From Escherichia virus TH58: a DNA stretch of 64,000 bases. Shown here one piece after another: positions 1,251 to 26,854 of this stretch. The stretch lies in the sequence record MT446423.1. One strand, given 5' to 3'. The notes under the pieces are model-generated. The model ran no database searches. It was not told where the DNA came from and saw only the letters and a program-made list of their open reading frames with translations. Position numbers and translations under genes: made by a program. Numbering within the stretch: the stretch's first letter is position 1; each line of letters opens with the position of its first letter.

Positions 1251-1724
1251 ATGTTATTATCAGGCGCAAAATATAAAGAAGAAAAACAAAAATTTTATGA
1301 TGCACAGAATGGTAAGTGTCCTATTTGCCACCGTGAATTAGACCCTGATGTTCAAGGTAACCATCTTGACCACGACCACGAATTAAACGGGCCAAAAGCA
1401 GGTAGAGTTCGTGGGTTACTCTGTAATCTGTGCAACGCAGCAGAAGGTCAAATGAAGCATAAGTTCAACCGTTCCGGTCTTAAAGGACGTGATGTTGACT
1501 ACCTCGAATGGCTTGAAGCTCTTCTTGCTTATTTGAAACAAGATTATTCTGATAATAATATCCATCCTAATTTTGTTCCAGACAAAACTAAAGAGTTCTC
1601 AAGACTAGGTAAAGAGGAAATGATGGCTGAGATGCTTCAAAGAGGATTTGAATATAATGAATCTGATACCAAAACACAATTAATAGCTTCATTCAAAAAG
1701 CAGCTTAGAAAGAGTTTAAAATGA
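1251..1724 (+). CDS. 49: endonuclease VII (Holliday-junction resolvase), gene 49
   Basis: 157 aa; CPICHRE..HLDHDH..CNLCN zinc/His motifs; matches T4 endo VII as remembered; adjacent to nrdD as in T4. Confidence 0.88.
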   Translation: MLLSGAKYKEEKQKFYDAQNGKCPICHRELDPDVQGNHLDHDHELNGPKAGRVRGLLCNLCNAAEGQMKHKFNRSGLKGRDVDYLEWLEALLAYLKQDYSDNNIHPNFVPDKTKEFSRLGKEEMMAEMLQRGFEYNESDTKTQLIASFKKQLRKSLK

Positions 1725-2258
1725 AAATTGAAAAAGAAATTGAAGGATTAATTCATAAAACTAATAAAGATCTTTTGAACGAGAATGCTAATAAAGATTC
1801 TCGTGTTTTTCCAACTCAACGGGACCTTATGGCTGGTATTGTGTCTAAGCACATTGCTAGAAATATGGTCCCGTCTTTTATTATGAAAGCACATGAAAGC
1901 GGAATTATCCATTTCCATGATATTGATTATTCCCCTGCTCTTCCGTTTACTAATTGCTGTTTAGTAGATTTAAAAGGAATGCTTGAGAATGGATTTAAAT
2001 TAGGCAATGCTCAAATTGAAACGCCTAAATCTATTGGCGTTGCTACTGCAATTATGGCACAAATTACTGCACAAGTTGCTTCACATCAGTACGGCGGAAC
2101 GACTTTTGCTAATGTAGATAAAGTACTTTCTCCTTATGTTAAACGCACCTATGCAAAACATATTGAGGATGCAGAAAAATGGCAAATCGCTGATGCGTTG
2201 AATTATGCCCAATCTAAAACAGAAAAAGACGTATACGATGCATTCCAAGCTTATGAGT
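1721..2258 (+). CDS. nrdD: anaerobic ribonucleotide reductase NrdD, exon 1
   Basis: N-terminal NrdD sequence; reading frame hits TAA 2264-2266 just inside a group I intron; 5' splice site placed after U2258 by P1 pairing (exon AUGAGU with intron GCUCAU at about 2272-2277). Confidence 0.85.
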
Positions 2259-2506: not shown

Positions 2507-3277
2507 ATGAAATGGATAAAAAGACGTTGTACTAAAATAAAAGATAAAGACGCATTTACATACTTAGTTAAGTTTTCTAATGGCGACATTTATATCGGTT
2601 ATAAAAAATTTAGAACAATTAAAAACAAGCCCACAAACTGGAAAACTTACACAACGTCATCTAAGTATATAAATGAACGCTTAAAAACTGATACACCTAC
2701 TAAATGGATAATTTTAAAAACATTTGATAGTTATAAAGACGCATTAAAACATGAAGAAGAGGTCATACGTAAATATTTTTATAACAAAAAATGTTTAAAT
2801 AAATCCATAGGCGGTAAAAAGTTTTATAAGCATCCGGATACTGAAGAACATATTCAAAAATTAAGAGATGCTCATAAGGGTAAAGTGTTATCCGAATCTC
2901 ATAAAAACAATATAAAATCTTCTGTAGCTGAATATTATGCTAAAAACGGAAGATCTAAGGAACATGTGCAAAATAATATCAATAGTCGAAAAAGTAAAAA
3001 ACAAGTATCGATAAAGCTTAAAAATAAAACTTTTAGAAGTTTTAAAAAAGCGGCGGAATATTTAAATTGCACTGAAAGTGAAGTCGAAACTCATCCTCTT
3101 GTTTTGAGTATTAAGACTACTATTCATAAAGTTCCTGAATATGTGGTTGTTGACGGTATTAAGTATACGTCTTATATAGAAGCAGCTAAAGCGCTAAATT
3201 TTCATCCTAGCACTATAAAAGAACGTTGCATATCTATGGACTATCCAAATTTTGTTGTTTCATATAAACGGGCATGA
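2507..3277 (+). CDS. intron-encoded GIY-YIG homing endonuclease (I-TevII-like)
   Basis: 256 aa within nrdD intron; N-terminal GIY-YIG-like segment (..DIYIGYKK..), repeated NUMOD3-like basic repeats, C-terminal helix-turn-helix (VVDGIKYTSYIEAAKALN). Confidence 0.8.
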   Translation: MKWIKRRCTKIKDKDAFTYLVKFSNGDIYIGYKKFRTIKNKPTNWKTYTTSSKYINERLKTDTPTKWIILKTFDSYKDALKHEEEVIRKYFYNKKCLNKSIGGKKFYKHPDTEEHIQKLRDAHKGKVLSESHKNNIKSSVAEYYAKNGRSKEHVQNNINSRKSKKQVSIKLKNKTFRSFKKAAEYLNCTESEVETHPLVLSIKTTIHKVPEYVVVDGIKYTSYIEAAKALNFHPSTIKERCISMDYPNFVVSYKRA

Positions 3278-3291
3278 ATTTGCGACTCATG

Positions 3292-4583
3292 CTGAATATA
3301 ATGATGAAGTAAATACACTTTTCAGCTCTAATGGACAAACGCCTTTTGTAACAATTACATTTGGAACAGGAACTGACTGGACTGAACGAATGATTCAAAA
3401 AGCAATTCTGAAAAATCGTATTAAAGGTCTTGGACGTGACGGGATAACTCCTATTTTCCCTAAACTTGTTATGTTCGTTGAAGAAGGTGTTAATCTTTAT
3501 AAAGACGACCCGAACTACGATATTAAGCAGCTTGCTCTAGAGTGTGCAAGCAAAAGAATGTATCCTGATATTATTTCGGTTAAGAATAATAAAACTATCA
3601 CCGGTTCTTCAGTTCCTGTTTCTCCAATGGGCTGCCGTAGTTTCTTGAGCGTATGGAAAGATTCGACTGGTAATGAAATTCTTGATGGACGTAATAATCT
3701 TGGCGTTGTAACACTGAATCTTCCTCGTATTGCATTAGATTCTTATATTGGAACACAATTCAATGAACAGAAATTTGTTGAGTTATTTAATGAACGAATG
3801 GATCTGTGTTTTGAAGCCTTGATGTGTAGAATTAGTTCCTTAAAAGGAGTTAAAGCGACTGTTGCTCCTATTCTTTATCAAGAAGGTGCATTTGGGGTTC
3901 GTCTTAAACCTGATGATGACATAATTGAGTTATTTAAAAACGGTAGAAGTTCGGTGTCTTTAGGATACATTGGTATTCATGAATTGAATATTCTTGTCGG
4001 ACGTGATATTGGGCAAGAAATTTTAACTAAAATGAATGCTCGTCTTAAGCAGTGGACTGAAAGAACTGGTTTTGCTTTTAGCTTGTATTCTACTCCCGCT
4101 GAAAACCTTTGTTATCGCTTCTGTAAACTTGATACCGAGAAATATGGAAGTGTAAAAGATGTTACTGATAAAGGCTGGTACACTAATAGTTTCCATGTTT
4201 CAGTAGAAGAAAATATCACTCCGTTTGAAAAGATTTCTCGCGAAGCACCATATCATTTCATTGCGACCGGCGGACACATTTCTTATGTTGAACTTCCTGA
4301 TATGAAAAATAACTTAAAAGGACTTGAGGCTGTATGGGATTATGCCGCACAACATTTAGATTATTTTGGTGTTAATATGCCAGTAGATAAATGTTTTACA
4401 TGTGGAAGTACCCATGAAATGACTCCTACCGAAAACGGATTTGTTTGTTCTATTTGTGGAGAAACTGATCCTAAAAAGATGAACACAATAAGAAGAACAT
4501 GCGGTTATCTCGGAACTCCTAGCGTTGTTCCGTGGAATTTAGGTAAAATGAAAGAAATGGTAAAACGAGTAAAACATGCATAG
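3292..4583 (+). CDS. nrdD: anaerobic ribonucleotide reductase NrdD, exon 2
   Basis: Continues NrdD; zinc site CFTCGS..CSICG and C-terminal glycyl-radical motif RRTCGYLG; spliced protein about 609 aa. Confidence 0.85.
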
Positions 4584-5406
4584 GTATTATATAATTTATA
4601 AAATAACAAATATAATTAATTCAAAGGAATATATCGGTGCGCATAGCACCGATAACATAAATGACGGTTATATGGGGTCAGGAACATTGATTCGTGCCGC
4701 TTTATTAAAATATGGTAGAAAAAATTTTAATAAAGAAATTTTACATGTTTTTGATAATGAAAAACAAATGTATGATAAAGAAGCTGAACTTGTAACCGAA
4801 GAGTATTGTCTAAAAGAAAATACATATAATATTAAACCTGGTGGAAAAGGTGGAACTGCCTATGAACAGACACTTGAACATCGCCGCAAAAATAGTTTAG
4901 CAAATAAAGGTAAAAAGAGAACAGAAGAAACTAAAATAGCTATTTCACGTGCTTTAAAGAAATATAAACGTACGCCAGAGCATCAAGCAAATTTAAATAA
5001 AGCCGTAAGCATAGCTATGAAGCGAAAAGATGTTAGAAGTAAATTAGCTGGAGAGCGGTCTGAGAAAGATAAATTATCTATATCAAACGGTGTTAAAAAA
5101 TATTACAATTCTTTGAGTGAAGAAGAACGCGAACTTCATCGCAAGCGAATTATTGAAGGTAAAAAGAATTCTCCCATGTCATTGGAATCTAGACAAAAGC
5201 TTTCAAAAGCTTTAAAAGGACTTCAAGTTGGTTCAAAAAATCCAATGTATGGAAAAATTTCTCCGACTAGCAAAACCGTTTCAGTTGACGGTATTAAATA
5301 TGATTCAATTAAAAAGTGCTCAAATGCCATAAAAGTTTCTAGACATCTTATACTAAAACGCTGTAATTCTACTGATGAAGCTTGGAAAAATTGGGTATTA
5401 TTATGA
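4576..5406 (+). CDS. free-standing GIY-YIG homing endonuclease (Seg-like)
   Basis: 276 aa; classic YYIIYKITNIINSKEYIGAHST..GYMGSG GIY-YIG motif, NUMOD3 repeats, C-terminal HTH; inserted between nrdD and nrdG with overlapping start/stop. Confidence 0.8.
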   Translation: MHRYYIIYKITNIINSKEYIGAHSTDNINDGYMGSGTLIRAALLKYGRKNFNKEILHVFDNEKQMYDKEAELVTEEYCLKENTYNIKPGGKGGTAYEQTLEHRRKNSLANKGKKRTEETKIAISRALKKYKRTPEHQANLNKAVSIAMKRKDVRSKLAGERSEKDKLSISNGVKKYYNSLSEEERELHRKRIIEGKKNSPMSLESRQKLSKALKGLQVGSKNPMYGKISPTSKTVSVDGIKYDSIKKCSNAIKVSRHLILKRCNSTDEAWKNWVLL

Positions 5407-5873
5407 ATTATGATAGATTTTATCCTTGCGATTTTGTGAATGGTCCTGGTTGCAGGGTTGTTCTTTTCGTTACAGGGTGTTTGCATAAATGCGAAGGGTG
5501 TTATAATAAATCAACATGGAATGCTAGAAATGGTATTCCATTCACTGGTGAAACACTAGAGCAATTAATTGAATGTTTGAATAATGATTATATAGAAGGA
5601 TTAACTATAACTGGAGGAGACCCTCTCTATCCTGATAACCGAGATGTTGTTCATTGCATCGTTCAAACAGTAAAAAATCTTTGTCCCAATAAAAGCATTT
5701 GGTTATGGACAGGATATAAGTTTGAAGATATTAAACAACTAGAAATGCTTAAATATGTTGATGTTATTATTGATGGGAAGTATGAGAAAAATCTTCCGAC
5801 CAAAAAACTGTGGCGAGGATCAGATAATCAGCGACTTTGGTCAAATACCGATGGGGTGTGGAAACATGATTAA
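5403..5873 (+). CDS. nrdG: anaerobic RNR activating enzyme NrdG (radical SAM)
   Basis: Start refined to MNYDRFYPCDF; CLHKCEGC radical-SAM cluster motif; matches T4 NrdG. Confidence 0.9.
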   Translation: MNYDRFYPCDFVNGPGCRVVLFVTGCLHKCEGCYNKSTWNARNGIPFTGETLEQLIECLNNDYIEGLTITGGDPLYPDNRDVVHCIVQTVKNLCPNKSIWLWTGYKFEDIKQLEMLKYVDVIIDGKYEKNLPTKKLWRGSDNQRLWSNTDGVWKHD

Positions 5874-17455: not shown

Positions 17456-20167
17456 ATGAAAGAATTTTACCTAACGGTTGAACAGATTGGTGATTCAATT
17501 TTTGAACGTTACATCGATTCTAATGGCTGTGAACGTACTCGTGAAGTAGAGTATAAGCCATCATTGTTTGCACATTGTCCTGAAAGTCAGGCCACGAAAT
17601 ATTTTGATATCTACGGTAAACCTTGTACTCGTAAACTGTTCGCTAACATGCGTGATGCCTCCCAATGGATTAAACGCATGGAAGATATCGGACTTGAAGC
17701 ACTTGGTATGGACGATTTCAAATTGGCGTATTTGTCTGACACTTATAACTATGAAATCAAATACGACCATACAAAAATTCGTGTGGCTAACTTCGACATC
17801 GAAGTAACATCTCCGGATGGGTTCCCTGAGCCGTCGCAAGCAAAACATCCGATTGATGCTATCACCCATTATGACTCAATTGACGACAGGTTCTACGTAT
17901 TTGATCTATTGAATTCTCCATATGGTAATGTGGAAGAATGGTCTATCGAAATTGCAGCTAAGCTTCAAGAACAAGGTGGTGATGAAGTTCCATCCGAAAT
18001 TATCGACAAAATCGTTTATATGCCGTTCGATAACGAAAAAGAATTGTTGATGGAATATCTCAACTTCTGGCAACAGAAAACTCCTGTCATTTTGACTGGA
18101 TGGAACGTTGAGTCATTTGATATTCCATATGTGTATAACCGAATCAAGAATATTTTTGGCGAATCTACTGCGAAACGTTTATCACCACATCGTAAAACTC
18201 GTGTTAAAGTTATCGAAAACATGTATGGTTCTCGTGAAATCATTACATTGTTCGGTATCTCTGTTCTTGATTACATTGACCTTTACAAAAAATTCTCTTT
18301 TACCAATCAACCGTCGTATTCTCTGGATTACATTTCAGAATTTGAATTGAACGTTGGTAAACTGAAATATGACGGCCCTATTTCTAAGCTTCGTGAAAGC
18401 AATCACCAACGATATATTTCTTATAACATTATCGACGTGTATCGTGTATTGCAAATTGATGCTAAGCGTCAGTTCATCAACTTGAGTTTGGACATGGGTT
18501 ATTATGCTAAGATACAGATTCAATCTGTGTTTAGTCCAATTAAAACATGGGATGCTATTATTTTTAATAGCCTTAAAGAGCAGAACAAGGTGATTCCACA
18601 AGGTCGTTCTCATCCGGTTCAACCTTATCCTGGCGCTTTTGTTAAGGAACCTATTCCAAATCGATACAAATATGTAATGAGTTTCGACCTTACATCTCTG
18701 TATCCAAGTATTATTCGCCAAGTGAATATTAGCCCAGAAACAATAGCAGGAACGTTTAAAGTAGCTCCATTGCATGATTATATTAACGCTGTTGCTGAAC
18801 GTCCTTCTGATGTGTACAGTTGTTCTCCTAACGGCATGATGTATTATAAAGACCGTGATGGTGTAGTTCCAACTGAAATCACTAAAGTCTTTAATCAACG
18901 TAAAGAACATAAAGGTTACATGCTTGCAGCTCAACGTAATGGTGAAATAATTAAAGAGGCATTGCATAATCCTAATCTTTCTGTCGACGAACCATTAGAT
19001 GTTGATTATCGTTTCGACTTCAGTGATGAGATTAAAGAAAAGATTAAAAAGTTGTCTGCTAAATCTCTTAATGAAATGTTGTTTAGAGCTCAACGTACTG
19101 AAGTTGCAGGTATGACTGCCCAAATTAACCGTAAATTGCTTATCAACTCACTTTATGGTGCACTTGGCAACGTTTGGTTCCGTTATTATGATTTGCGTAA
19201 TGCTACCGCAATCACAACATTTGGTCAAATGGCTTTACAGTGGATTGAACGTAAAGTTAATGAATATCTGAATGAAGTTTGTGGTACAGAAGGTGAAGCT
19301 TTCGTTCTATATGGTGATACAGACTCTATTTACGTATCTGCTGATAAAATTATCGATAAGGTTGGTGAATCTAAATTCCGTGATACCAACCATTGGGTAG
19401 ACTTCTTAGATAAGTTTGCACGTGAACGTATGGAACCAGCTATTGATAGAGGTTTCCGTGAAATGTGTGAATACATGAACAATAAACAACACTTAATGTT
19501 CATGGACCGAGAAGCTATCGCTGGTCCTCCGCTCGGTTCTAAAGGTATTGGTGGATTCTGGACTGGTAAGAAACGTTATGCATTAAACGTGTGGGACATG
19601 GAAGGTACTCGTTACGCTGAGCCTAAACTCAAAATAATGGGTCTAGAGACTCAGAAATCTTCGACTCCTAAAGCAGTACAGAAAGCTCTTAAAGAATGTA
19701 TTCGTCGTATGCTTCAAGAAGGTGAAGAATCATTACAAGAATATTTTAAAGAGTTTGAAAAAGAATTCCGTCAATTGAATTATATTAGCATCGCGTCGGT
19801 ATCTTCTGCGAATAACATTGCTAAATATGAAGTAGGTGGATTCCCGGGTCCTAAATGCCCGTTCCATATTCGTGGAATTCTGACGTATAACCGGGCTATC
19901 AAAGGTAATATCGATGCACCGCAAGTTGTAGAAGGTGAAAAAGTATATGTTCTGCCTTTACGTGAAGGAAACCCATTCGGTGATAAATGTATCGCATGGC
20001 CTTCTGGTACTGAAATCACAGATTTAATTAAAGACGACGTACTTCATTGGATGGACTACACTGTTCTCCTTGAGAAGACATTTATTAAACCACTTGAAGG
20101 ATTCACATCAGCAGCGAAACTCGATTACGAGAAGAAAGCATCTCTGTTCGATATGTTCGATTTTTGA
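17456..20167 (+). CDS. 43: DNA polymerase gp43 (family B)
   Basis: 903 aa; exonuclease motif FDIEV, polymerase motifs DLTSLYPSII and YGDTDSIYV; sequence matches RB69 gp43 as remembered. Confidence 0.97.
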   Translation: MKEFYLTVEQIGDSIFERYIDSNGCERTREVEYKPSLFAHCPESQATKYFDIYGKPCTRKLFANMRDASQWIKRMEDIGLEALGMDDFKLAYLSDTYNYEIKYDHTKIRVANFDIEVTSPDGFPEPSQAKHPIDAITHYDSIDDRFYVFDLLNSPYGNVEEWSIEIAAKLQEQGGDEVPSEIIDKIVYMPFDNEKELLMEYLNFWQQKTPVILTGWNVESFDIPYVYNRIKNIFGESTAKRLSPHRKTRVKVIENMYGSREIITLFGISVLDYIDLYKKFSFTNQPSYSLDYISEFELNVGKLKYDGPISKLRESNHQRYISYNIIDVYRVLQIDAKRQFINLSLDMGYYAKIQIQSVFSPIKTWDAIIFNSLKEQNKVIPQGRSHPVQPYPGAFVKEPIPNRYKYVMSFDLTSLYPSIIRQVNISPETIAGTFKVAPLHDYINAVAERPSDVYSCSPNGMMYYKDRDGVVPTEITKVFNQRKEHKGYMLAAQRNGEIIKEALHNPNLSVDEPLDVDYRFDFSDEIKEKIKKLSAKSLNEMLFRAQRTEVAGMTAQINRKLLINSLYGALGNVWFRYYDLRNATAITTFGQMALQWIERKVNEYLNEVCGTEGEAFVLYGDTDSIYVSADKIIDKVGESKFRDTNHWVDFLDKFARERMEPAIDRGFREMCEYMNNKQHLMFMDREAIAGPPLGSKGIGGFWTGKKRYALNVWDMEGTRYAEPKLKIMGLETQKSSTPKAVQKALKECIRRMLQEGEESLQEYFKEFEKEFRQLNYISIASVSSANNIAKYEVGGFPGPKCPFHIRGILTYNRAIKGNIDAPQVVEGEKVYVLPLREGNPFGDKCIAWPSGTEITDLIKDDVLHWMDYTVLLEKTFIKPLEGFTSAAKLDYEKKASLFDMFDF

Positions 20168-20207
20168 TATAATGACATGGACGGTAAACTAATTAAATGA
20201 GAGAAAT

Positions 20208-20843
20208 ATGAAAACTACTCCTATTACTATCGCTATTGACGCAATCATAAAACAAGCTTCTTCTTTGGCCGCTATGGCCAAAGTAATTAGTCAAAACCCT
20301 GCTCGTTATAATGCTATTCTAGAAACTCTTCGACGCCCAGGACTTAGTAATTATGAAAGTCGTGTAATTATTACAGGTGTTGGTAAGAACGCTAATATCG
20401 CAACTAAAGCTTCTGAGACTTTTGCTTCATTAGGTATTCCTAGCATGTATTTGAACACCGGGCATTATTCTCACGGCGATGCAGGATTCATTGCGCCTAA
20501 TGATGTGTTGATTCATATTAGTCGTTCTGGTAAAACTGAAGAAATGATAGGCGTGGCTAAGCATCTTAAAATGATTCGTCCGAACGTCAAACAGATTCTG
20601 TTGCATTGTAACCCAGACATTCCACAAGAAAATGAAGCCCTTTTTGATTACTCTTTCTGTACAGGCATCGCAGTAGAGGTTGATGAGAATTCTCTGGCTC
20701 CGACTATGTCCACTACATTGTTGTTAGCGCTTATCGATACGTTTGCTATCAACCTTTCGTCTGAACGTGGATTTACCTCTAATGACTTCCTTAAGTTCCA
20801 CCCTGGTGGTGCACTAGGTGCCATGTTACGAGGCGAACAATGA
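20208..20843 (+). CDS. SIS-domain sugar-phosphate isomerase, arabinose-5-phosphate isomerase-like (no CBS domains)
   Basis: GVGKNANIATKASETFASLGIPSMYL..HGDAGFIAPNDVLIHISRSGKTEE matches the KdsD/KpsF/GutQ SIS signature; not found at this locus in T4. Confidence 0.8.
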   Translation: MKTTPITIAIDAIIKQASSLAAMAKVISQNPARYNAILETLRRPGLSNYESRVIITGVGKNANIATKASETFASLGIPSMYLNTGHYSHGDAGFIAPNDVLIHISRSGKTEEMIGVAKHLKMIRPNVKQILLHCNPDIPQENEALFDYSFCTGIAVEVDENSLAPTMSTTLLLALIDTFAINLSSERGFTSNDFLKFHPGGALGAMLRGEQ

Positions 20844-20983
20844 AAGCAATAACAATAGGACTTTTACTATTGATGCTTGTCATGACTATCTACTGGAGCT
20901 TAACGGCTCCAGTAATGATTCCAACACTTGTAATCGGATGGATTATGATTGGACTACAAGCAAAGTATGAATGCTTTAACTAG
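20840..20983 (+). CDS. small hydrophobic protein (47 aa)
   Basis: ORF read by eye; ATG overlaps stop of the SIS gene; two predicted TM segments. Confidence 0.3.
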   Translation: MKAITIGLLLLMLVMTIYWSLTAPVMIPTLVIGWIMIGLQAKYECFN

Positions 20984-20996
20984 AATAGTGTACAAT
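20970..20996 (+). promoter_or_regulatory. putative middle promoter upstream of nucleotidyltransferase-kinase gene
   Basis: MotA-box aaTGCTTTA, 12-nt spacer, -10 TACAAT. Confidence 0.45.
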
Positions 20997-21024
20997 ACTC
21001 CTACTTACCAATGAGGACCACAAC

Positions 21025-22710
21025 ATGAAAAAAGCTGTTATTCTTGGTGCTGGACTGGCAACTCGTTTGTATCCAATAACGCATCATATTCCTAAGGTGC
21101 TTGTTAACTATAAACAAGACACTATTCTGAGCAATTTGTATACAATTTATTCTGACCTTGGCGCAGATGAAATTATTGTAGTAGTTCATTCAAAATTTGC
21201 TGAAACCGTTCGAGCTTATTGTGAGCAAGAAGGGTTCAATGTGACTATTCGTACAGTTGATGAAGCATATGGTTCTGCTTATGCTCTTGCTAAATTGCAC
21301 AAAGATTTAGACGGTCATAATGTAATTGTTAACTGGTGTGATATTATTCCCGATTTTGGTTCATGGTCTTGGAATGTTAACGCAATCTATGTTAAGGGTG
21401 ACGAATGTCGATATAATTTCGACGGTGAAAATATCACTAACGTAGGTTCAACAGGTGGTAATGTTGTAGGAATTTATCAGTTCAAAGACTGGGAATTCTA
21501 TATGGGTTCTACTGATGAGGAAATTCATGAATACTGCAAAGGACGTGATTTCGTAGAATTCCTTTACGGCAGCGCATTCAATAAATCAGAGCTTATGAAT
21601 CTAATTGATTTAGGTGATATGCCTAAACTTGAAAAGGCTCATGAAGTTCGTGAACTTAATCGTAGTTTTAATGCGGTTGAAATTGGTGAAGAAACTGTAA
21701 CTAAATTCGCATTAACCGAACAGGGCCGATCTCTTCAGAAAGATGAGATTTCATGGTATCTTAAAGTGAAATCAGATTCAGTTCCTCAGTTAGTTTCTGT
21801 TAATGAAAATAACTTTGAAATGGAACGCATTAAAGGTAAGCCGGCATTTGAATATATTAAATCCAAATCGAGTCTTGCTCGTCCACAAATTGTTGATGCA
21901 ATTTTAGATGCACTGAAATTCAGCACAGACACTTATTTTGTAAGTCCTGAAACTGTTCGTCGTGATTTCACTAAAGAATTCTATACTAAAGTCATCGATC
22001 GTTGTGAAAGTATTCAACCATTGATTGATTCATTTGGTAAAATCACACATGTGAACTACACTAAGATTGGACGTCTGAAGCCAATGTTGAAACAAGCTTT
22101 AGAACACCTTATTCGTTATCATAACCGTTCTCAGGGACAGTACTCTGTTATTCATGGTGACCCGAACTTCAGTAATACTATGATTACTGATAATGGTGAA
22201 GTAAAGTTTATCGACCCTCGTGGATATTTTGGTGAAACCAAGATTTACGGGCCAAAATTGTATGACGAAGCTAAAGTGCTTTACGCTGTTTCAGGTTATG
22301 ATGAATTCAACGCCAATCCGACCTGGGGACAGTTTACTATTGATGAAATAACCTGTAATGTGACTATTAACATCAATCCATTAGTTTACAAATATGGAAA
22401 GATGAGTTCGTTTAACGTGTATCATCATTTGGCAGTGGCAATTATCTGGATTGCATTAGGTGGTTATTTCAAGAATAATCCACTTAAAGCGGTAGCCGCA
22501 TATTATAAAGGTATGGAACTTCTGACTAAGCAATTACGTAACATGGGCCGTGTACTTCAGGACGGCACTATTAGTTATGATGTAGCAGAACCTGTAACGG
22601 CTACTCTGATTACAAAAAATCCTGGTAAATGGGTACTAACTGATAAAGAAACTGGTGTTTCTTATCGTCCAATCGGTGGCGATAACACTCATCAATGGGA
22701 ACGAATCTAA
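21025..22710 (+). CDS. bifunctional sugar-1-phosphate nucleotidyltransferase / sugar kinase (561 aa)
   Basis: N-terminal GAGLATRL nucleotidyltransferase signature; C-terminal choline-kinase/APH-like kinase fold with HGDPNFSN catalytic loop and FIDPRGYF. Confidence 0.75.
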   Translation: MKKAVILGAGLATRLYPITHHIPKVLVNYKQDTILSNLYTIYSDLGADEIIVVVHSKFAETVRAYCEQEGFNVTIRTVDEAYGSAYALAKLHKDLDGHNVIVNWCDIIPDFGSWSWNVNAIYVKGDECRYNFDGENITNVGSTGGNVVGIYQFKDWEFYMGSTDEEIHEYCKGRDFVEFLYGSAFNKSELMNLIDLGDMPKLEKAHEVRELNRSFNAVEIGEETVTKFALTEQGRSLQKDEISWYLKVKSDSVPQLVSVNENNFEMERIKGKPAFEYIKSKSSLARPQIVDAILDALKFSTDTYFVSPETVRRDFTKEFYTKVIDRCESIQPLIDSFGKITHVNYTKIGRLKPMLKQALEHLIRYHNRSQGQYSVIHGDPNFSNTMITDNGEVKFIDPRGYFGETKIYGPKLYDEAKVLYAVSGYDEFNANPTWGQFTIDEITCNVTININPLVYKYGKMSSFNVYHHLAVAIIWIALGGYFKNNPLKAVAAYYKGMELLTKQLRNMGRVLQDGTISYDVAEPVTATLITKNPGKWVLTDKETGVSYRPIGGDNTHQWERI

Positions 22711-23096
22711 TGCACCGTGTAAAAAACATGCTTAATCTTTGTTTTGACGTCGATGATTGTATAACAGAGTGGAATAACAATCGTGATTACGTGAACTTCA
22801 AACCGGACGTCGAAATGGTGTCTGCCATTAATGCCCTGTATGATGCAGGGCATACCATAACGCTTTACACTGCTCGCGGTATGAAGTCAGTCGGTCCTGG
22901 TCGTATAGCAATTGACATTCTCCCAAGTCTGATTCAGAACTTGGCAAACATTGGATTGAAGTACCATAATTTGCTAACACATAAACCAGTATATGATTGG
23001 ATTATCGACGACAAAGCTATGCGTCCTGACGAATTCAAAGCTCTTATGAATAAAGGCGAATTCGAAACATTTAAATCATATAAACCGAATCTATAA
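22710..23096 (+). CDS. HAD-superfamily phosphatase (128 aa)
   Basis: HAD motif I FDVDDCIT, motif II LYTARG, motif IV IIDDKA; start may instead be ATG 22695. Confidence 0.65.
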   Translation: MHRVKNMLNLCFDVDDCITEWNNNRDYVNFKPDVEMVSAINALYDAGHTITLYTARGMKSVGPGRIAIDILPSLIQNLANIGLKYHNLLTHKPVYDWIIDDKAMRPDEFKALMNKGEFETFKSYKPNL

Positions 23097-23150
23097 TAAT
23101 TTAAGTAAGACCTGCAAAAACCATCGCAACAATTAACGCGAGATGCAAAA

Positions 23151-24311
23151 ATGAATACCTTTAAAATCGGAACGAATTTTGATTTAGCTCTTCTTGATAA
23201 AATCGTAGAGCTCAATAAAACTTATCCTAATAGCTTGATAAACGAAGTATACGGCTCTACAAGAGAAATGGCTTTTGTAGCAGCCAGACCTGATTTTAGG
23301 CTTCCTGACGTTGACAAAAAGATGTTAGAAGATTACGTTAAACGTTGTAACGAATTAGGTATTTGCTTTAACTATACACTCAACACGATAAATCCTGGTT
23401 CAAAAAGAGAACTAGTTGAGTGGAAGAAGAAAGCTATTCAGGATTATGTTCAGTATCTTTGGTCAATAGGTGTATGGCGTATTACTATCGCTAACCCTGT
23501 TGTTATGGAAATTGTTCGTGAAGTCAATAAAGACATTGAGATTGAAGTTTCAACAATTCTACATGTCGATGCTGTAACTCAAATCAAATACTTGCATGAC
23601 CAATATAATATCAAAAAGGTCTGCTGTGGAATTCACAAGAACCGTTCAGTTTCTTTCCTGAAGCGTGCAGCAGAGTTTTGCAATAAGAACAATATAATAT
23701 TTGAAGTTCTTGTAAATGAGTTCTGTTCTAATGCTGGTAAAGGGTATACAACACATTGTAGTTATCGTGACTCTTGCTATATTTTCCATAGCACCGATGT
23801 TACAGTAGATGATGCCAAATCCTTAAATGGATATCCAATGCAACACTGTATTAAAGCTCGTGATACAGATCCATTTAACTGGTTGAGAACTCGTTTTGTT
23901 CGTCCTCAAGATTTGAAACTTTATAATGATATTGGTATCACTCAATTCAAAGTTTCAGGACGTACAGGTAGCACAGACTACATTTTGAAAGTTCTTGAAG
24001 CATACGCTTCTGAAAAGTTTGAAGGTAATTTGTTAGAACTGTGGAAGCCTTTAGAGACTATTTTCACTCTTGAAAACGAAACTGAGTTTTCACATACAGT
24101 AAATATTGAAACCTCTTTGTTAGATGGCTTTTTAGAAAAAAGGTGGTTCAAACATCCAGATTTCGATTGTGCTAATGAAATCTGCGGGACGACGTGTACA
24201 TATTGTGAAAGATATTATAAACGTCAGTTATCTAAAAATGGGTTATCAGAAAACTCTATATCTATTATTGATATAACTAACTCTGACGACGCTTTGAGGT
24301 ACCCAGAATGA
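23151..24311 (+). CDS. Cys-rich enzyme of unknown function, possibly TIM-barrel / peptidase-U32-like (386 aa)
   Basis: Alternating beta-strand/helix pattern and EVLVNEFCSNAGKGYTTHC segment loosely resemble U32-family proteins; C-terminal CANEICGTTCTYC cysteine cluster; assignment uncertain. Confidence 0.55.
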   Translation: MNTFKIGTNFDLALLDKIVELNKTYPNSLINEVYGSTREMAFVAARPDFRLPDVDKKMLEDYVKRCNELGICFNYTLNTINPGSKRELVEWKKKAIQDYVQYLWSIGVWRITIANPVVMEIVREVNKDIEIEVSTILHVDAVTQIKYLHDQYNIKKVCCGIHKNRSVSFLKRAAEFCNKNNIIFEVLVNEFCSNAGKGYTTHCSYRDSCYIFHSTDVTVDDAKSLNGYPMQHCIKARDTDPFNWLRTRFVRPQDLKLYNDIGITQFKVSGRTGSTDYILKVLEAYASEKFEGNLLELWKPLETIFTLENETEFSHTVNIETSLLDGFLEKRWFKHPDFDCANEICGTTCTYCERYYKRQLSKNGLSENSISIIDITNSDDALRYPE

Positions 24312-24589
24312 TTTCTAGAAAAACTTTTAACCACCAACTTAATGAAGAGATTTTGACTACGAAAATTAACAGCAACGAACAAATTCTTAAAAAGGCCCTT
24401 ATTGGCCTGTTTGAAACTAAAGCGGCTAAAGTGATTAAAGAACCTGTTCAATTGTAATACTACGCTGATGCATTTCTTCATAGTGTTCTTGGAAATATCG
24501 ATGCTGAAGCTTTACGTTATATCAACACCGCTAAGAAATTCAAATAAGCTTTATGAATTGAGTATATAATAAATTGTATTGAGGTAAAC

Positions 24590-25306
24590 ATGGGAAAACA
24601 TAACACAATGAAATATATTAAAGCCGCAGATTTTCAATCCGCATTTAAAGCTGTCAATCGTGAAATTTTAGAAAACCCGGAATTCGTTACTGATTCTCGT
24701 ATTGGACGTTGTAATGAAATTGGGTCTATGACAGTAGTTGTTGACACTCCATCATCATTCAAAATGACCGACCCACGTATTAACCGCATCTCTTATGAAT
24801 ATGCTGAAGATTTCTGGAAGTTTATGATTTCTGGCGGTACCGACGCAGAAGAAGCATTTAAGGCATATCCTAATGTCGCTAAATTTATTTCTAAACCAAA
24901 ATCAGATGCTTTGCCTGCGAACTTCAACACTTTCTATGGTCCACGAATTGCGGCCCAGTTACCAGCTCTTCTCAAAGAACTTAAAGAGAAACCTAATTCA
25001 CGAAGAGTTGTGTTCCAAATTCTAGAAAGTTCAGATCAGGCTTTGCTTGATTCGGACGAAACACTTGAATATCCATGTACTGACTCAGTGACTTATTATA
25101 TTCGTGATGGTAAGCTTTATACCCACTGTCATATGCGTTCTCAGAACTGTGCTGTTGTTATGCAGTTGGATTTTTATCTCCAAGGAAAATTACTTCATTA
25201 TATCGCTAACGAATGTGGTGTAGAAGTTGGTGATTATACTCATACCATGGTAAGTGCCCATGTGTTTGAACGTGATTTTGATTATGTTAAAGGATTCCTT
25301 GACTAA
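24590..25306 (+). CDS. 42: dCMP hydroxymethylase gp42 (thymidylate-synthase fold)
   Basis: 238 aa; TS-family active-site region PCTDSVTYYIRDGKLYTHCHMRSQNCAVVMQLDF; position between gene 43 and uvsX. Confidence 0.82.
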   Translation: MGKHNTMKYIKAADFQSAFKAVNREILENPEFVTDSRIGRCNEIGSMTVVVDTPSSFKMTDPRINRISYEYAEDFWKFMISGGTDAEEAFKAYPNVAKFISKPKSDALPANFNTFYGPRIAAQLPALLKELKEKPNSRRVVFQILESSDQALLDSDETLEYPCTDSVTYYIRDGKLYTHCHMRSQNCAVVMQLDFYLQGKLLHYIANECGVEVGDYTHTMVSAHVFERDFDYVKGFLD

Positions 25307-26205
25307 TGGCTATTTTCCGCGTACCTATCTTGAGTATGCGGTCTTATGAAACTGGTCAGTATGCTATCCTTAAGGATGGTAACTTCCAACTTCATTTGCA
25401 CCGTGCTAATCCAGGTGATGTGATTACATATCCACGTAATGCATCTGATATTAAAGAATGTGAACGTCTTTTCCCAGAATTTAAGTTTGTTCCATTATGG
25501 TATAAAGATAACGCGTATAACACTCGTAAATATTTCTGGTCTGAAAATGAATTTGTGGTTGATTCATTAATTGCTTATTATGATTGTGATTTTCTAATCA
25601 CAGATATCACTGGATATGACGGCGCTTTTGATGTGGAATTCAATTTCAATATCACTGCAGACCCTAATAAACCGCGTTTTTATATTGACGAATTCTTAAA
25701 AACCGACATGTTGTCGGTTAATCGTTCACTTCAAACTACTGTGTTGAATGAACGTCAAAAGGAAGTGCTGGTTAACGCTGGTGCGGATGGTAATAAGATT
25801 ATCGTAACGCAGAAAGTTATACGTCCTTCCATCATGCAGCGTCTTGTAGGTGATTTGGCTCCTATTCATCTAGATGGTATTTTTCATCCATTTCGAATTA
25901 GTGACCCGTGCTATCGTTTTGAACAAGTGGTTGAATGTGCAATTCAATTAGGTCAACCGCTTTATATAACCGATCCAAATAATAGCTTCGACAGAAATAA
26001 GTATCCTGAAGAAGCGCTGATTCGAATTTTTAAACCAACTAAAACTGAGTACTATCAAATTCTTAAAGGTCGGCCGAAGATTCAATATTTCGAAAATCCT
26101 GAAGAAGTATTCCATCCAGGTCTTGGCGAGTTCATCTACTTTAACGCTTTAATTTCTTCGCCGTATAATATACCTAAATATGAAGATGTCGTAATCGAGG
26201 AATAA
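25306..26205 (+). CDS. putative glycosyltransferase at the beta-gt locus (candidate hmC-DNA arabinosyltransferase), 299 aa
   Basis: Occupies the T4 beta-gt position but is unrelated to beta-gt; C-terminal FEQVVECAIQLGQPLYITD resembles a GT-B donor-binding segment; function inferred. Confidence 0.5.
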   Translation: MAIFRVPILSMRSYETGQYAILKDGNFQLHLHRANPGDVITYPRNASDIKECERLFPEFKFVPLWYKDNAYNTRKYFWSENEFVVDSLIAYYDCDFLITDITGYDGAFDVEFNFNITADPNKPRFYIDEFLKTDMLSVNRSLQTTVLNERQKEVLVNAGADGNKIIVTQKVIRPSIMQRLVGDLAPIHLDGIFHPFRISDPCYRFEQVVECAIQLGQPLYITDPNNSFDRNKYPEEALIRIFKPTKTEYYQILKGRPKIQYFENPEEVFHPGLGEFIYFNALISSPYNIPKYEDVVIEE

Positions 26206-26206
26206 A

Positions 26207-26755
26207 ATGGCTAAAATTATTTTAGTAGATGGCCCGGATAATGCTGGTAAAACAACTTTCATTAATGACATAATGGAAATTAGTGAAAGATATGTAAAGA
26301 TTGATTTCCCTAAACGAACAGTTGACGGACGTTTCGATGTTAAGTCTCGAAATGAAGTTGGTTGTTTCGAAACGATGTTGAATTATTTAGATCCTACTAA
26401 GATTTATCTGTTAGACCGTGGATATATTAGTAACTGGGTTTATGGACGTATTCGTCAAGATGCTGACTCGGTTCTTGACGTTTATGAACAGGATTATGTT
26501 CGTCTTTGCCAAAACCACGATGTGTTCACAATTATTTTAACACGTAACGAAATGACTGAAAGTTTTGAAGACGACCTTATTACTTTGTCTTCATTCGGTT
26601 TTAATACAGTAATTTCATATTTTGAAGAGTTTGCAATCCATAACGAAATCCAAACGTATCAATTACTTAATCATGATGGTGCTAACAAAGTTATAGGATT
26701 TAATGCAAGCGAACGTAATAATTTGATTACAGAAATTATCAAATGGGCTCGTTAA
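26207..26755 (+). CDS. P-loop kinase, nucleotide-kinase-like (182 aa)
   Basis: Walker A ILVDGPDNAGKTT at N-terminus, LDRGYISN downstream; thymidylate/deoxynucleotide-kinase-like architecture. Confidence 0.6.
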   Translation: MAKIILVDGPDNAGKTTFINDIMEISERYVKIDFPKRTVDGRFDVKSRNEVGCFETMLNYLDPTKIYLLDRGYISNWVYGRIRQDADSVLDVYEQDYVRLCQNHDVFTIILTRNEMTESFEDDLITLSSFGFNTVISYFEEFAIHNEIQTYQLLNHDGANKVIGFNASERNNLITEIIKWAR

Positions 26756-26854
26756 GAGCCTGTTTAAAGTTTTAAATGCTGTATAACCCTTAGTATATAA
26801 TCGTCTTATCTTTTAAACATGAGTAAAATATAATGATGCCTATGGAAAAATACA

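Follow-up and report, generated by a model that had tools for sequence, protein, structure and literature searches.

The DNA of phage RB69 contains mono- and di-arabinosylated 5-hydroxycytosine (5hoC), not hydroxymethylcytosine (PMC13326640, Nucleic Acids Res 2026), and the pathway that leads to this base was elucidated in 2025–2026. Its hydroxyl group is added to deoxycytidine monophosphate (dCMP) by the ThyA homolog gp48, an enzyme that binds its flavin loosely, needs a reductant, takes its oxygen from 18O2 and by itself yields 5-hydroxydeoxycytidine (5hodC) in Escherichia coli; uridine diphosphate (UDP)-arabinose is supplied by gp55, gp52:53 and gp51, the putative transferases are gp46:47 and gp3, and gp45 is a nucleotide kinase (PMC13326640). 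Mid-cluster lies a conserved gene without an assigned role, gp50, for which the same paper gives a table entry, "Sugar or heterocycle reductase", with a match to the PDB structure 5D88, while its text is silent on it. Here we analyze the gp50 homolog of Escherichia virus TH58 (MT446423.1), an open reading frame (ORF) at positions 23151–24311 of the 64,000-nucleotide stretch referred to below as the window. The protein belongs to the U32 family, and we predict, with a probability of roughly 0.55, that gp50-type proteins are prephenate-dependent, O2-independent cytosine-C5 hydroxylases. The gene itself is already known, without a role, and the role proposed here would extend the U32 prephenate-dependent hydroxylases to the synthesis of DNA precursors. 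Our literature search, which did not reach He et al. 2026 and Mahler et al. 2025, found no link between phage U32 genes and hydroxylation, nor is the gene discussed in the Thanatos and Durham papers.

Escherichia coli pairs O2-dependent with O2-independent routes, UbiI/H/F with UbiU/V and TrhO with TrhP, in which U32 proteins provide the O2-independent branch (PMC10990095). UbiU and UbiV are iron–sulphur (Fe-S) proteins that duplicate the flavin- and O2-dependent hydroxylases UbiI/H/F without O2, with prephenate as the oxygen donor, and TrhP (YegQ), responsible for ho5U34 of tRNA, carries out prephenate-dependent C5 hydroxylation of a pyrimidine (PMC10990095). RlhA (YdcP), which forms ho5C2501 of 23S rRNA, is likewise prephenate-dependent (PMC5727448); in all three systems the requirement for prephenate, the product of chorismate mutase (CM), is genetic (PMC10990095, PMC5727448). 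By analogy, the pairing of UbiI/H/F with UbiU–UbiV is the logic that we propose for gp48 and gp50. UbiU–UbiV differ from the phage protein in being a heterodimer with a lipid substrate and a need for UbiT, and TrhP differs in its tRNA substrate, its other C-terminal domain and its canonical CX6CX15CX3C motif. RB69 gp48 and gp80 of phage DLP3 would share with gp50 the product and the position in the pathway, and the gp48 gene lies two genes downstream of gp50, after ORF049c; their fold, however, is unrelated, their cofactor is flavin and their oxygen comes from O2, so that the likeness is one of analogy and not of homology. The "peptidase" Mk0906 of Methanopyrus kandleri (PDB 5D88) shares 14% identity with the phage protein, and differs from it in its length of 247 aa and in lacking the C-terminal Cys module.

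Over bases 20000–26800 the window shares 97.5% identity with RB69 and 98% with the phages SQ17 and F2 (all genus Mosigvirus), which makes it a T-even-type phage of the RB69-like Mosigvirus group. The ORF listing contains a single ORF at exactly the above bounds, starting with ATG and encoding 386 aa with 13 Cys (residues 66, 72, 158, 159, 177, 192, 203, 209, 233, 340, 345, 349 and 352). It is a real conserved gene and not a chance ORF: 268 database proteins match its product at E≤1e-3 (the best 120 at E≤1.9e-114), a profile search of 1.8 billion representatives collected 1,666 clusters at 50% identity (460 at E≤1e-30), and the gene is present in 221 phage records. Identity reaches 99–100% among RB69-like phages, 80–89% in T-even-like phages of Klebsiella, Enterobacter, Serratia, Yersinia, Proteus, Providencia, Edwardsiella, Pectobacterium and Shewanella, and 45–58% to hundreds of metagenomic proteins of ~360 aa. 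The Pfam family PF01136 (Peptidase_U32) matches residues 94–286 with E=6.3e-11 (42.4 bits against a cut-off of 22.4), and the same match is precomputed for nearly all homologs. A PDB sequence search returned no match at E≤1. The predicted structure (predicted local distance difference test, pLDDT, 93.1; predicted TM-score, pTM, 0.91) is a TIM barrel like that of 5D88, the only solved U32 member, and we regard the modelled U32 TIM-barrel fold as confident. A preliminary description of this DNA, made from its letters and ORF translations, had delimited the same Cys-rich 386-aa ORF and noted an alternation of strands and helices loosely resembling U32 barrels. The ORF has homologs throughout the databases, the alternation corresponds to the modelled barrel and the resemblance turns out to be significant, so that the fold need no longer be called unclear, as it was there.

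Most database entries label the gene "peptidase", "putative protease" or "collagenase-like protease", and others "putative enzyme involved in UDP-arabinose biosynthesis" (e.g. the Bas46 record). A true peptidase or collagenase would agree with these labels, with the family name and with reports of collagenolytic U32 proteins, as far as these are conveyed by their citation in PMC5727448; no proteolytic catalytic mechanism is known in the family (PMC5727448), a protease-like gene context is absent, and the linkage that we describe below is all to nucleotide and prephenate metabolism, which leaves this function scarcely credible.

Across 121 homologs the invariant residues include C158, C192, C203, C209, C233, C340, C345, C349 and C352, as well as E190, R46, R50, R165, R206, R237, R251, K267 and R271. 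The Cys residues fall into a core set (192, 203, 209 and 233) and a C-terminal set of four, the latter contained in the string CANEICGTTCTYC (residues 340–352; Table), with spacings that differ from the [4Fe-4S] pattern CX6CX15CX3C. Among 126 distant representatives, C192, C233, N78, R165, K267 and R271 are kept in 98–100% and the four C-terminal Cys in 83–87%; this conservation suits the metal- or Fe-S-binding cluster that the preliminary description had suspected at the C-terminus. The same 4+4 layout is found in RlhA (169, 176, 192, 196 and 572, 580, 611, 614), where C169 and C176 are essential, E161 is nearly so, and the C-terminal C580 and C611 are essential for ho5C formation (PMC5727448). 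RlhA is also the best match in our hhalign comparison with the E. coli paralogs (E=1.2e-5 over 203 columns), which places C203 and C209 on RlhA C169 and C176, and E190 on E161, i.e. on the Cys pair and Glu that RlhA needs; UbiU gave E=8e-3 and UbiV no real match. Both proteins thus belong to the same family, and the outcome that we propose, a C5 hydroxyl on cytosine, would be the same. In contrast, RlhA is a 653-aa protein that has a DUF3656 domain and binds the pre-50S particle, its Cys pair has the spacing CX6C in place of CX5C, its hmmsearch similarity is marginal, and the substrate proposed for the phage protein is a deoxynucleotide; only PF01136 is found in the 386-aa chain, a U32 domain followed by a short Cys knuckle, and the architecture of an RlhA ortholog (U32 plus DUF3656, ~650 aa) is absent.

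With hmmsearch, the E. coli paralogs scored 14.9 (TrhP), 9.3 (RlhA), 6.0 (UbiU) and -1.4 bits (UbiV), and the NCBIfam UbiU equivalog NF047963 scored 19.4 bits, far below its cut-off of 440. We also ran the PROSITE signature PS01276, which we take to be E-x-F-x2-G-[SA]-[LIVM]-C-x4-G-x-C-x-[LIVM]-S, as a regular expression on the phage protein and the E. coli paralogs. UbiU, RlhA and TrhP match it and UbiV, a bona fide member, does not; the phage protein carries a variant, E190-F-C192...C203-x5-C209-Y-I-F-H-S. Because the paralog scores are weak (all below 15 bits with hmmsearch) and conflicting, and the PROSITE signature is unmatched, the phage protein thus appears from these comparisons to form a distinct deep subfamily that is orthologous to none of the E. 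coli paralogs. The protein has no Thymidylat_synt match, nor the D169N/N177D signature of a ThyA-superfamily 5-hydroxy-dCMP synthase.

The evidence that connects this subfamily with prephenate comes from gene linkage. In the Enterobacter phage Entb_45, the gene that overlaps the U32 stop codon encodes a 79-aa CM (Pfam CM_2, E=2.4e-10, above threshold). Using tblastn we found such a CM gene (79–114 aa) in 56 phage records covering ~15 host genera, including Klebsiella, Serratia, Yersinia, Enterobacter, Edwardsiella, Erwinia, Proteus, Pectobacterium, Shewanella, Providencia, Morganella and Kosakonia, where it immediately follows the U32 gene; in every match among those listed it is flanked by U32 on one side and by the ThyA homolog on the other. 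T-even-like phages of many Enterobacterales and the Shewanella phage Thanatos thus have a CM of their own within the cytosine-modification cluster, which most records label "hypothetical". Entb_45 and vB_EclM_Q7622 (both Kanagawavirus) have flanks that are 89% and 95% identical, between which a 1.55-kb segment consisting of exactly the U32 and CM genes in Entb_45 is replaced by 100 bp in vB_EclM_Q7622. By host genus as given in the record names, the ThyA homolog, U32 and CM are present in 9, 4 and 4 records of Enterobacter phages, 9, 7 and 7 of Serratia phages, and 6, 6 and 6 of Yersinia phages. The U32 and CM genes behave as one accessory cassette, gained or lost together.

A second linkage emerged when we inspected ~8 kb on each side of U32 in 37 distant loci, of which 25 are on viral contigs, 11 in genomes and one on a megaphage-like contig. 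In seven of them, unrelated low-GC phage contigs or metagenome-assembled genomes (MAGs), either a fusion of 3-deoxy-D-arabino-heptulosonate 7-phosphate (DAHP) synthase with CM (Pfam E-values 3.9e-25 and 5.4e-20) or a free CM is encoded a few genes from U32. Since these two independent linkages to prephenate supply are otherwise hard to explain, we suggest that the subfamily uses prephenate. The fusions, with CM at the C-terminus, stand beside U32, HAD, SIS and nucleotidyltransferase genes in low-GC phage contigs and a Gastranaerophilaceae MAG (Table); phages that carry them appear to push flux toward the shikimate pathway.

Within the 37 distant loci, a gp46/47-like (GT1-like) transferase is encoded near U32 in 21, a thymidylate-kinase-like kinase in nine, a SIS isomerase in ten, and a ThyA-family gene, which looks like an ordinary thymidylate synthase, in one. 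Some homologs adjoin a glycosyltransferase (GT) and a nucleoside monophosphate (NMP) kinase in the absence of arabinose genes. Conversely, Acinetobacter phage Lazarus and E. coli Dhakavirus Bp7 possess the arabinose, ThyA-homolog and GT genes and lack both U32 and CM. Since U32-less phages carry this route, and one of them, the Acinetobacter phage DLP3, makes tri-arabinosyl-5hoC (PMC13326640), we conclude that the gene is not part of arabinose activation or transfer. A sugar-tailoring or redox enzyme of the arabinose branch would nevertheless suit the location of the gene inside the arabinose cassette, between the HAD phosphatase and the ThyA homolog, its labels ("sugar or heterocycle reductase" in Table 1 of PMC13326640; "UDP-arabinose biosynthesis" in the Bas46 record), and the presence of nucleotidyltransferase-kinase and HAD phosphatase genes in 13 of the distant loci each. 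We consider it unlikely, given that arabinosyl-5hoC is made in the absence of the gene, that homologs accompany GT and NMP kinase genes where no sugar-nucleotide genes are found, and that sugar chemistry leaves the CM linkage unexplained. Moreover, in the published nuclear magnetic resonance and mass spectrometry data, RB69 nucleosides carry plain arabinose, only cytosine is modified and modification of thymine is not reported; the product so defined needs no extra tailoring step.

The preliminary description had already remarked that the arabinose route has no need of this gene, which the U32-less producers of arabinosyl-5hoC confirm, and had offered three roles for it. Tailoring of the sugar is disfavored by these same phages (PMC13326640) and by the homologs without arabinose genes; a function as the transferase itself finds no support, the protein having no GT similarity and the cluster encoding its own GT (Table). 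Tailoring of the base is the option that the comparative evidence favors, specifically as C5 hydroxylation of cytosine. The base in question was there assumed to be hydroxymethylcytosine and is in fact 5hoC (PMC13326640).

A direct exchange between the two kinds of enzyme was seen in a family of 48–52 kb phages (RecA at least 78% identical), in the slot between the NMP kinase and PolIII-alpha genes. Among 58 scorable loci, this slot holds a ThyA homolog with the cytosine-type residue N177D and retained D169 (RSND...D) in 39 (28 of them with the kinase), a GT1-like gene plus U32 in two, neither cassette in 17, and both the ThyA homolog and U32 in none. The GT1-like plus U32 arrangement occurs in six distinct contigs of the family in all: three from the slot scan, one of them with too little upstream sequence for scoring, and three from the first viral scan only. 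In one U32 contig, a six-frame search of positions 2,897–49,310 of 49,310 bp (94%) found zero ThyA-family ORFs at E≤10, with a positive control at 1e-110; the genome-wide absence of ThyA rests on this one contig. There, U32 is the only candidate to make the acceptor of the GT. In this family the U32 gene sits where a pyrimidine-C5 enzyme sits. The hot spot (loci L065–L144) as a whole contains a cassette of radical-SAM/SPASM protein, kinase, 286-aa protein and dCMP-type ThyA homolog, or a cassette of kinase, GT and U32, or is empty, which suggests frequent swapping of DNA-modification chemistries within one phage lineage.

These observations bear on two further possibilities. The U32 protein could be an Fe-S protein that transfers electrons to gp48, reducing or otherwise servicing its flavin: the two genes are neighbors, with ORF049c between them, the protein has many conserved Cys, and the loosely bound flavin of gp48 needs a reductant (PMC13326640). 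A partner would hardly be expected to be mutually exclusive with the ThyA homolog in the 48–52 kb family, to lack one nearby in 36 of the 37 distant loci and over 94% of one genome, or to be dispensable to a gp48 that functions in E. coli without gp50; as the CM linkage also remains unexplained, we regard such a partnership as very unlikely. Alternatively, the protein could hydroxylate host or phage tRNA or rRNA in the manner of TrhP or RlhA, and lie in a DNA-modification cluster by chance. T4-like phages do carry tRNA genes. RNA is the target of the only U32 proteins that act on nucleic acids (PMC10990095, PMC5727448), and it is TrhP that marginally leads the hmmsearch ranking. Yet in unrelated phages the gene is consistently surrounded by genes for DNA modification, its place can be taken by a dCMP-type ThyA homolog, and the accessory RNA-binding domain is absent, so that action on RNA is highly improbable.

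Hydroxylation of the cytosine C5 position, which we prefer, has a closer relative in the hydroxylation of some other substrate of nucleotide metabolism: deoxyuridine monophosphate (dUMP), another base, or cytosine after incorporation, at sites that escape replacement. It would share the family and CM evidence. Further, the U32 homolog in a 466-kb megaphage-like JGI contig (Table) overlaps, and is probably translationally coupled to, a gene for dCMP deaminase, which would supply dUMP, and the known substrates of RlhA and TrhP are polymers (PMC5727448). Against this stand the restriction of RB69 modification to cytosine, thymine modification not being reported, the combination of dCTPase and NMP kinase in the clusters, which points to the mononucleotide level, and the lack in the U32 protein of the extra RNA-binding DUF3656 domain of RlhA; this, too, is unlikely. 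The surroundings of U32 in the megaphage-like contig further include MazG/dUTPase-like, radical-SAM/SPASM, thymidylate kinase, uracil-DNA glycosylase and PolIII-alpha genes, and no GT was seen within 10 kb; the hydroxylated base of this phage might be derived from uracil. In a number of cellular-looking contigs (L002/L051 and L057–L060) U32 forms a triad with a methyltransferase-like protein of 414–443 aa and a protein of 264–282 aa, followed in L002 by genes for an NT5C 5'-nucleotidase, a PnuC-like transporter, a deoxynucleoside kinase, a radical-SAM/SPASM protein, a faint second U32 and a nucleoside 2-deoxyribosyltransferase. Judging from this gene content, the triad may be a system of modification or salvage at the nucleoside level.

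The phylogenetic distribution follows the use of oxygen, with the reservations, to be counted against our prediction, that host oxygen habits were read from organism names and that the lineages do not count as independent samples. For the strict aerobes Acinetobacter (57 records) and Rhizobium (22 records), phages carry only the ThyA homolog, and neither genus name occurs among the U32 matches. The genomes and MAGs that have U32, with gp46/47-like GT and NMP kinase genes, and lack a ThyA homolog belong mostly to strict anaerobes (Phocaeicola faecalis, Tannerella, Romboutsia, Oscillospiraceae, Erysipelotrichales and Gastranaerophilaceae, and one locus in a dockerin-bearing genome); in phages of facultative anaerobes (Enterobacterales, Shewanella) the two often occur together. 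The known hydroxylase is O2-dependent, yet the hosts of these phages are gut bacteria, and the phages have a ribonucleotide reductase for anaerobic conditions, whose genes nrdD and nrdG are encoded in the window; this shows that the phage is equipped for anoxic replication.

The family and fold of the protein, its Cys conservation, and the linkage and distribution of its gene are results of our comparisons; its Fe-S content, its use of prephenate, its substrate and the connection with oxygen are inferences from them. We propose that prephenate would be supplied by a host or phage CM, and that the U32 enzyme, whose core and C-terminal Cys would hold one or two Fe-S clusters, would carry out a two-electron oxidation of the cytosine ring of dCMP. 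Decarboxylation of prephenate would then provide hydroxide to C5 with release of phenylpyruvate, as in the scheme put forward for UbiU–V (PMC10990095), and the resulting 5-hydroxy-dCMP would be phosphorylated, incorporated and arabinosylated along the published pathway. Two anionic ligands, prephenate and a nucleotide, would be well accommodated by the many basic residues that are invariant. The substrate is probably dCMP and less probably cytosine already in DNA. In phages that also encode gp48 the product would be the same 5-hydroxy-dCMP, and the two enzymes would constitute aerobic and anaerobic routes to one essential precursor, parallel to UbiI/H/F and UbiU/V, to TrhO and TrhP, and to the aerobic and anaerobic ribonucleotide reductases of the phage itself. 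More tentatively, and with less than even odds in our judgment, the subfamily may be the general oxygen-free route of phages to 5hoC, and the sole route in phages of strict anaerobes (gut Bacteroidales, Clostridia), feeding gp46/47-like GTs.

Several points weigh against the prediction of a prephenate-dependent cytosine hydroxylase. In vitro hydroxylation has not yet been shown for any U32 protein (PMC10990095), and the substrates established for U32 proteins are either RNA polymers or a lipid, and not free nucleotides. The phage protein is about equally remote from the four E. coli paralogs, hhalign favoring RlhA and hmmsearch TrhP; it fails the PS01276 pattern, with CX5C in place of CX6C plus an insertion; and C203 and C209 are kept in only ~60% of the 126 distant representatives (60–71% if E190 is included). 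A six-frame search found no CM in the window, nor do RB69-like phages have one of their own. Finally, since gp48 alone gives 5hodC and U32-less phages such as the E. coli Dhakaviruses exist, the gene is dispensable at least in air, and we only infer that it is needed under anaerobic conditions.

If the prediction is true, a second, oxygen-free route would explain replication in the gut, and U32-less phages should have an oxygen-dependent host range, which is relevant to the choice of therapeutic phages. The reach of prephenate-dependent hydroxylation, so far RNA and quinones, would come to include DNA precursors, and many uncultured phages of anaerobes would be predicted to contain glycosylated 5hoC; should the subfamily be the general oxygen-free route, such DNA would be widespread in the anaerobic virome. 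The U32 field, so far without an in vitro assay, could also gain one, because a soluble mononucleotide substrate and a single small chain would make this the first tractable system for U32 hydroxylation in vitro.

Table. Features of the gp50 region and of the nrd region in the window, and U32-linked genes in other phage loci
Feature	Sequence	Position	Strand	Evidence or remark
nrdD, residues 1–179	window	1721-2257	+	split relative to RB69
GIY-YIG-like ORF, 256 aa	window	2507-3277		between the nrdD parts
nrdD, residues 178–606	window	3297-4583	+	split relative to RB69
second GIY-YIG-like ORF	window	4576-5406		before nrdG
nrdG	window	5403-5873		
DNA polymerase	window	17456-20167		upstream of isomerase
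Arabinose-5-phosphate isomerase (SIS; UDP-arabinose supply)	window	20208-20843	+	Pfam, PHROG; role via AfhE/AfhF homology in PMC13326640
Fused nucleotidyltransferase/kinase (UDP-arabinose supply)	window	21025-22710	+	Pfam, PHROG; role via AfhE/AfhF homology in PMC13326640
HAD phosphatase (UDP-arabinose supply)	window	22695-23096	+	Pfam, PHROG; role via AfhE/AfhF homology in PMC13326640
U32-family protein, 386 aa, RB69 gp50 homolog; proposed cytosine C5 hydroxylase	window	23151-24311	+	PF01136
Core Cys motif C192-x10-C203-x5-C209-x23-C233, preceded by E190	window	23724-23849	+	invariant in 121 homologs
C-terminal cluster C340-x4-C345-x3-C349-x2-C352 (CANEICGTTCTYC)	window	24168-24206	+	invariant in 121 homologs; modelled with pLDDT 96–97
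RB69 ORF049c homolog (79 aa in RB69)	window	24308-24547	+	PHROG 8601; start overlaps U32 stop
ThyA-superfamily 5-hydroxy-dCMP synthase, RB69 gp48 homolog	window	24590-25306	+	Pfam Thymidylat_synt; 99.6% identity to gp48; RSQN...D signature
Putative DNA arabinosyltransferase 1, single 299-aa ORF, RB69 gp46:47 homolog	window	25306-26205	+	PMC13326640 Table 1
Thymidylate-kinase-like nucleotide kinase, RB69 gp45 homolog	window	26207-26755	+	PHROG 761; PMC13326640 Table 1
uvsX	window			after thymidylate-kinase-like gene
U32 homolog with overlapping dCMP deaminase gene, 466-kb megaphage-like contig	L001	9447-11086		overlaps dCMP deaminase gene
CM of Entb_45	L007	7158-7397		Pfam CM_2
DAHP synthase–CM fusion	L035	6411-7433		
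DAHP synthase–CM fusion	L038	6321-7376		
DAHP synthase–CM fusion	L039	6332-7387		
DAHP synthase–CM fusion	L053	6931-7959		

In the window, the U32 gene is the fourth of its cassette, after the isomerase, nucleotidyltransferase-kinase and HAD phosphatase genes (Table). The ORF049c homolog that follows it has a GAA to TAA change at codon 50 (24455–24457), which leaves a 49-aa ORF at 24308–24457; the reading frame is intact in RB69 (GAA codon, 79 aa) and in phiE142. In some Yersinia and Pectobacterium phages U32, ORF049 and CM stand in a row, and ORF049 may for this reason be an accessory protein of U32. We also considered ORF049c, which occupies the same site and has the same length of 79 aa, as a decayed CM, and rejected this: it has no CM_2 match, was not recruited by jackhmmer and belongs to a separate PHROG, and some phages carry both ORF049 and CM.

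Between 1721 and 5873 of the window (+ strand), the nrdD gene is interrupted relative to its RB69 counterpart by one of two GIY-YIG-like ORFs (Table). Rfam detected no group I intron at gathering score in this region, and nrdD is therefore either a split gene or contains an undetected intron. PADLOC defence models gave zero matches. A scan for promoters and terminators between 20000 and 27000 found sites no more common than in shuffled sequence, for which reason we do not take the TTTAAA-16-TATAAT site at 23070–23097 as evidence. The nucleotidyltransferase/kinase (561 aa) and the arabinosyltransferase (299 aa) are unsplit in the window, while the RB69 reference record divides them into ORF052c/053c and ORF046c/047c, respectively, which agrees with the published view that the splits in RB69 are sequencing errors.

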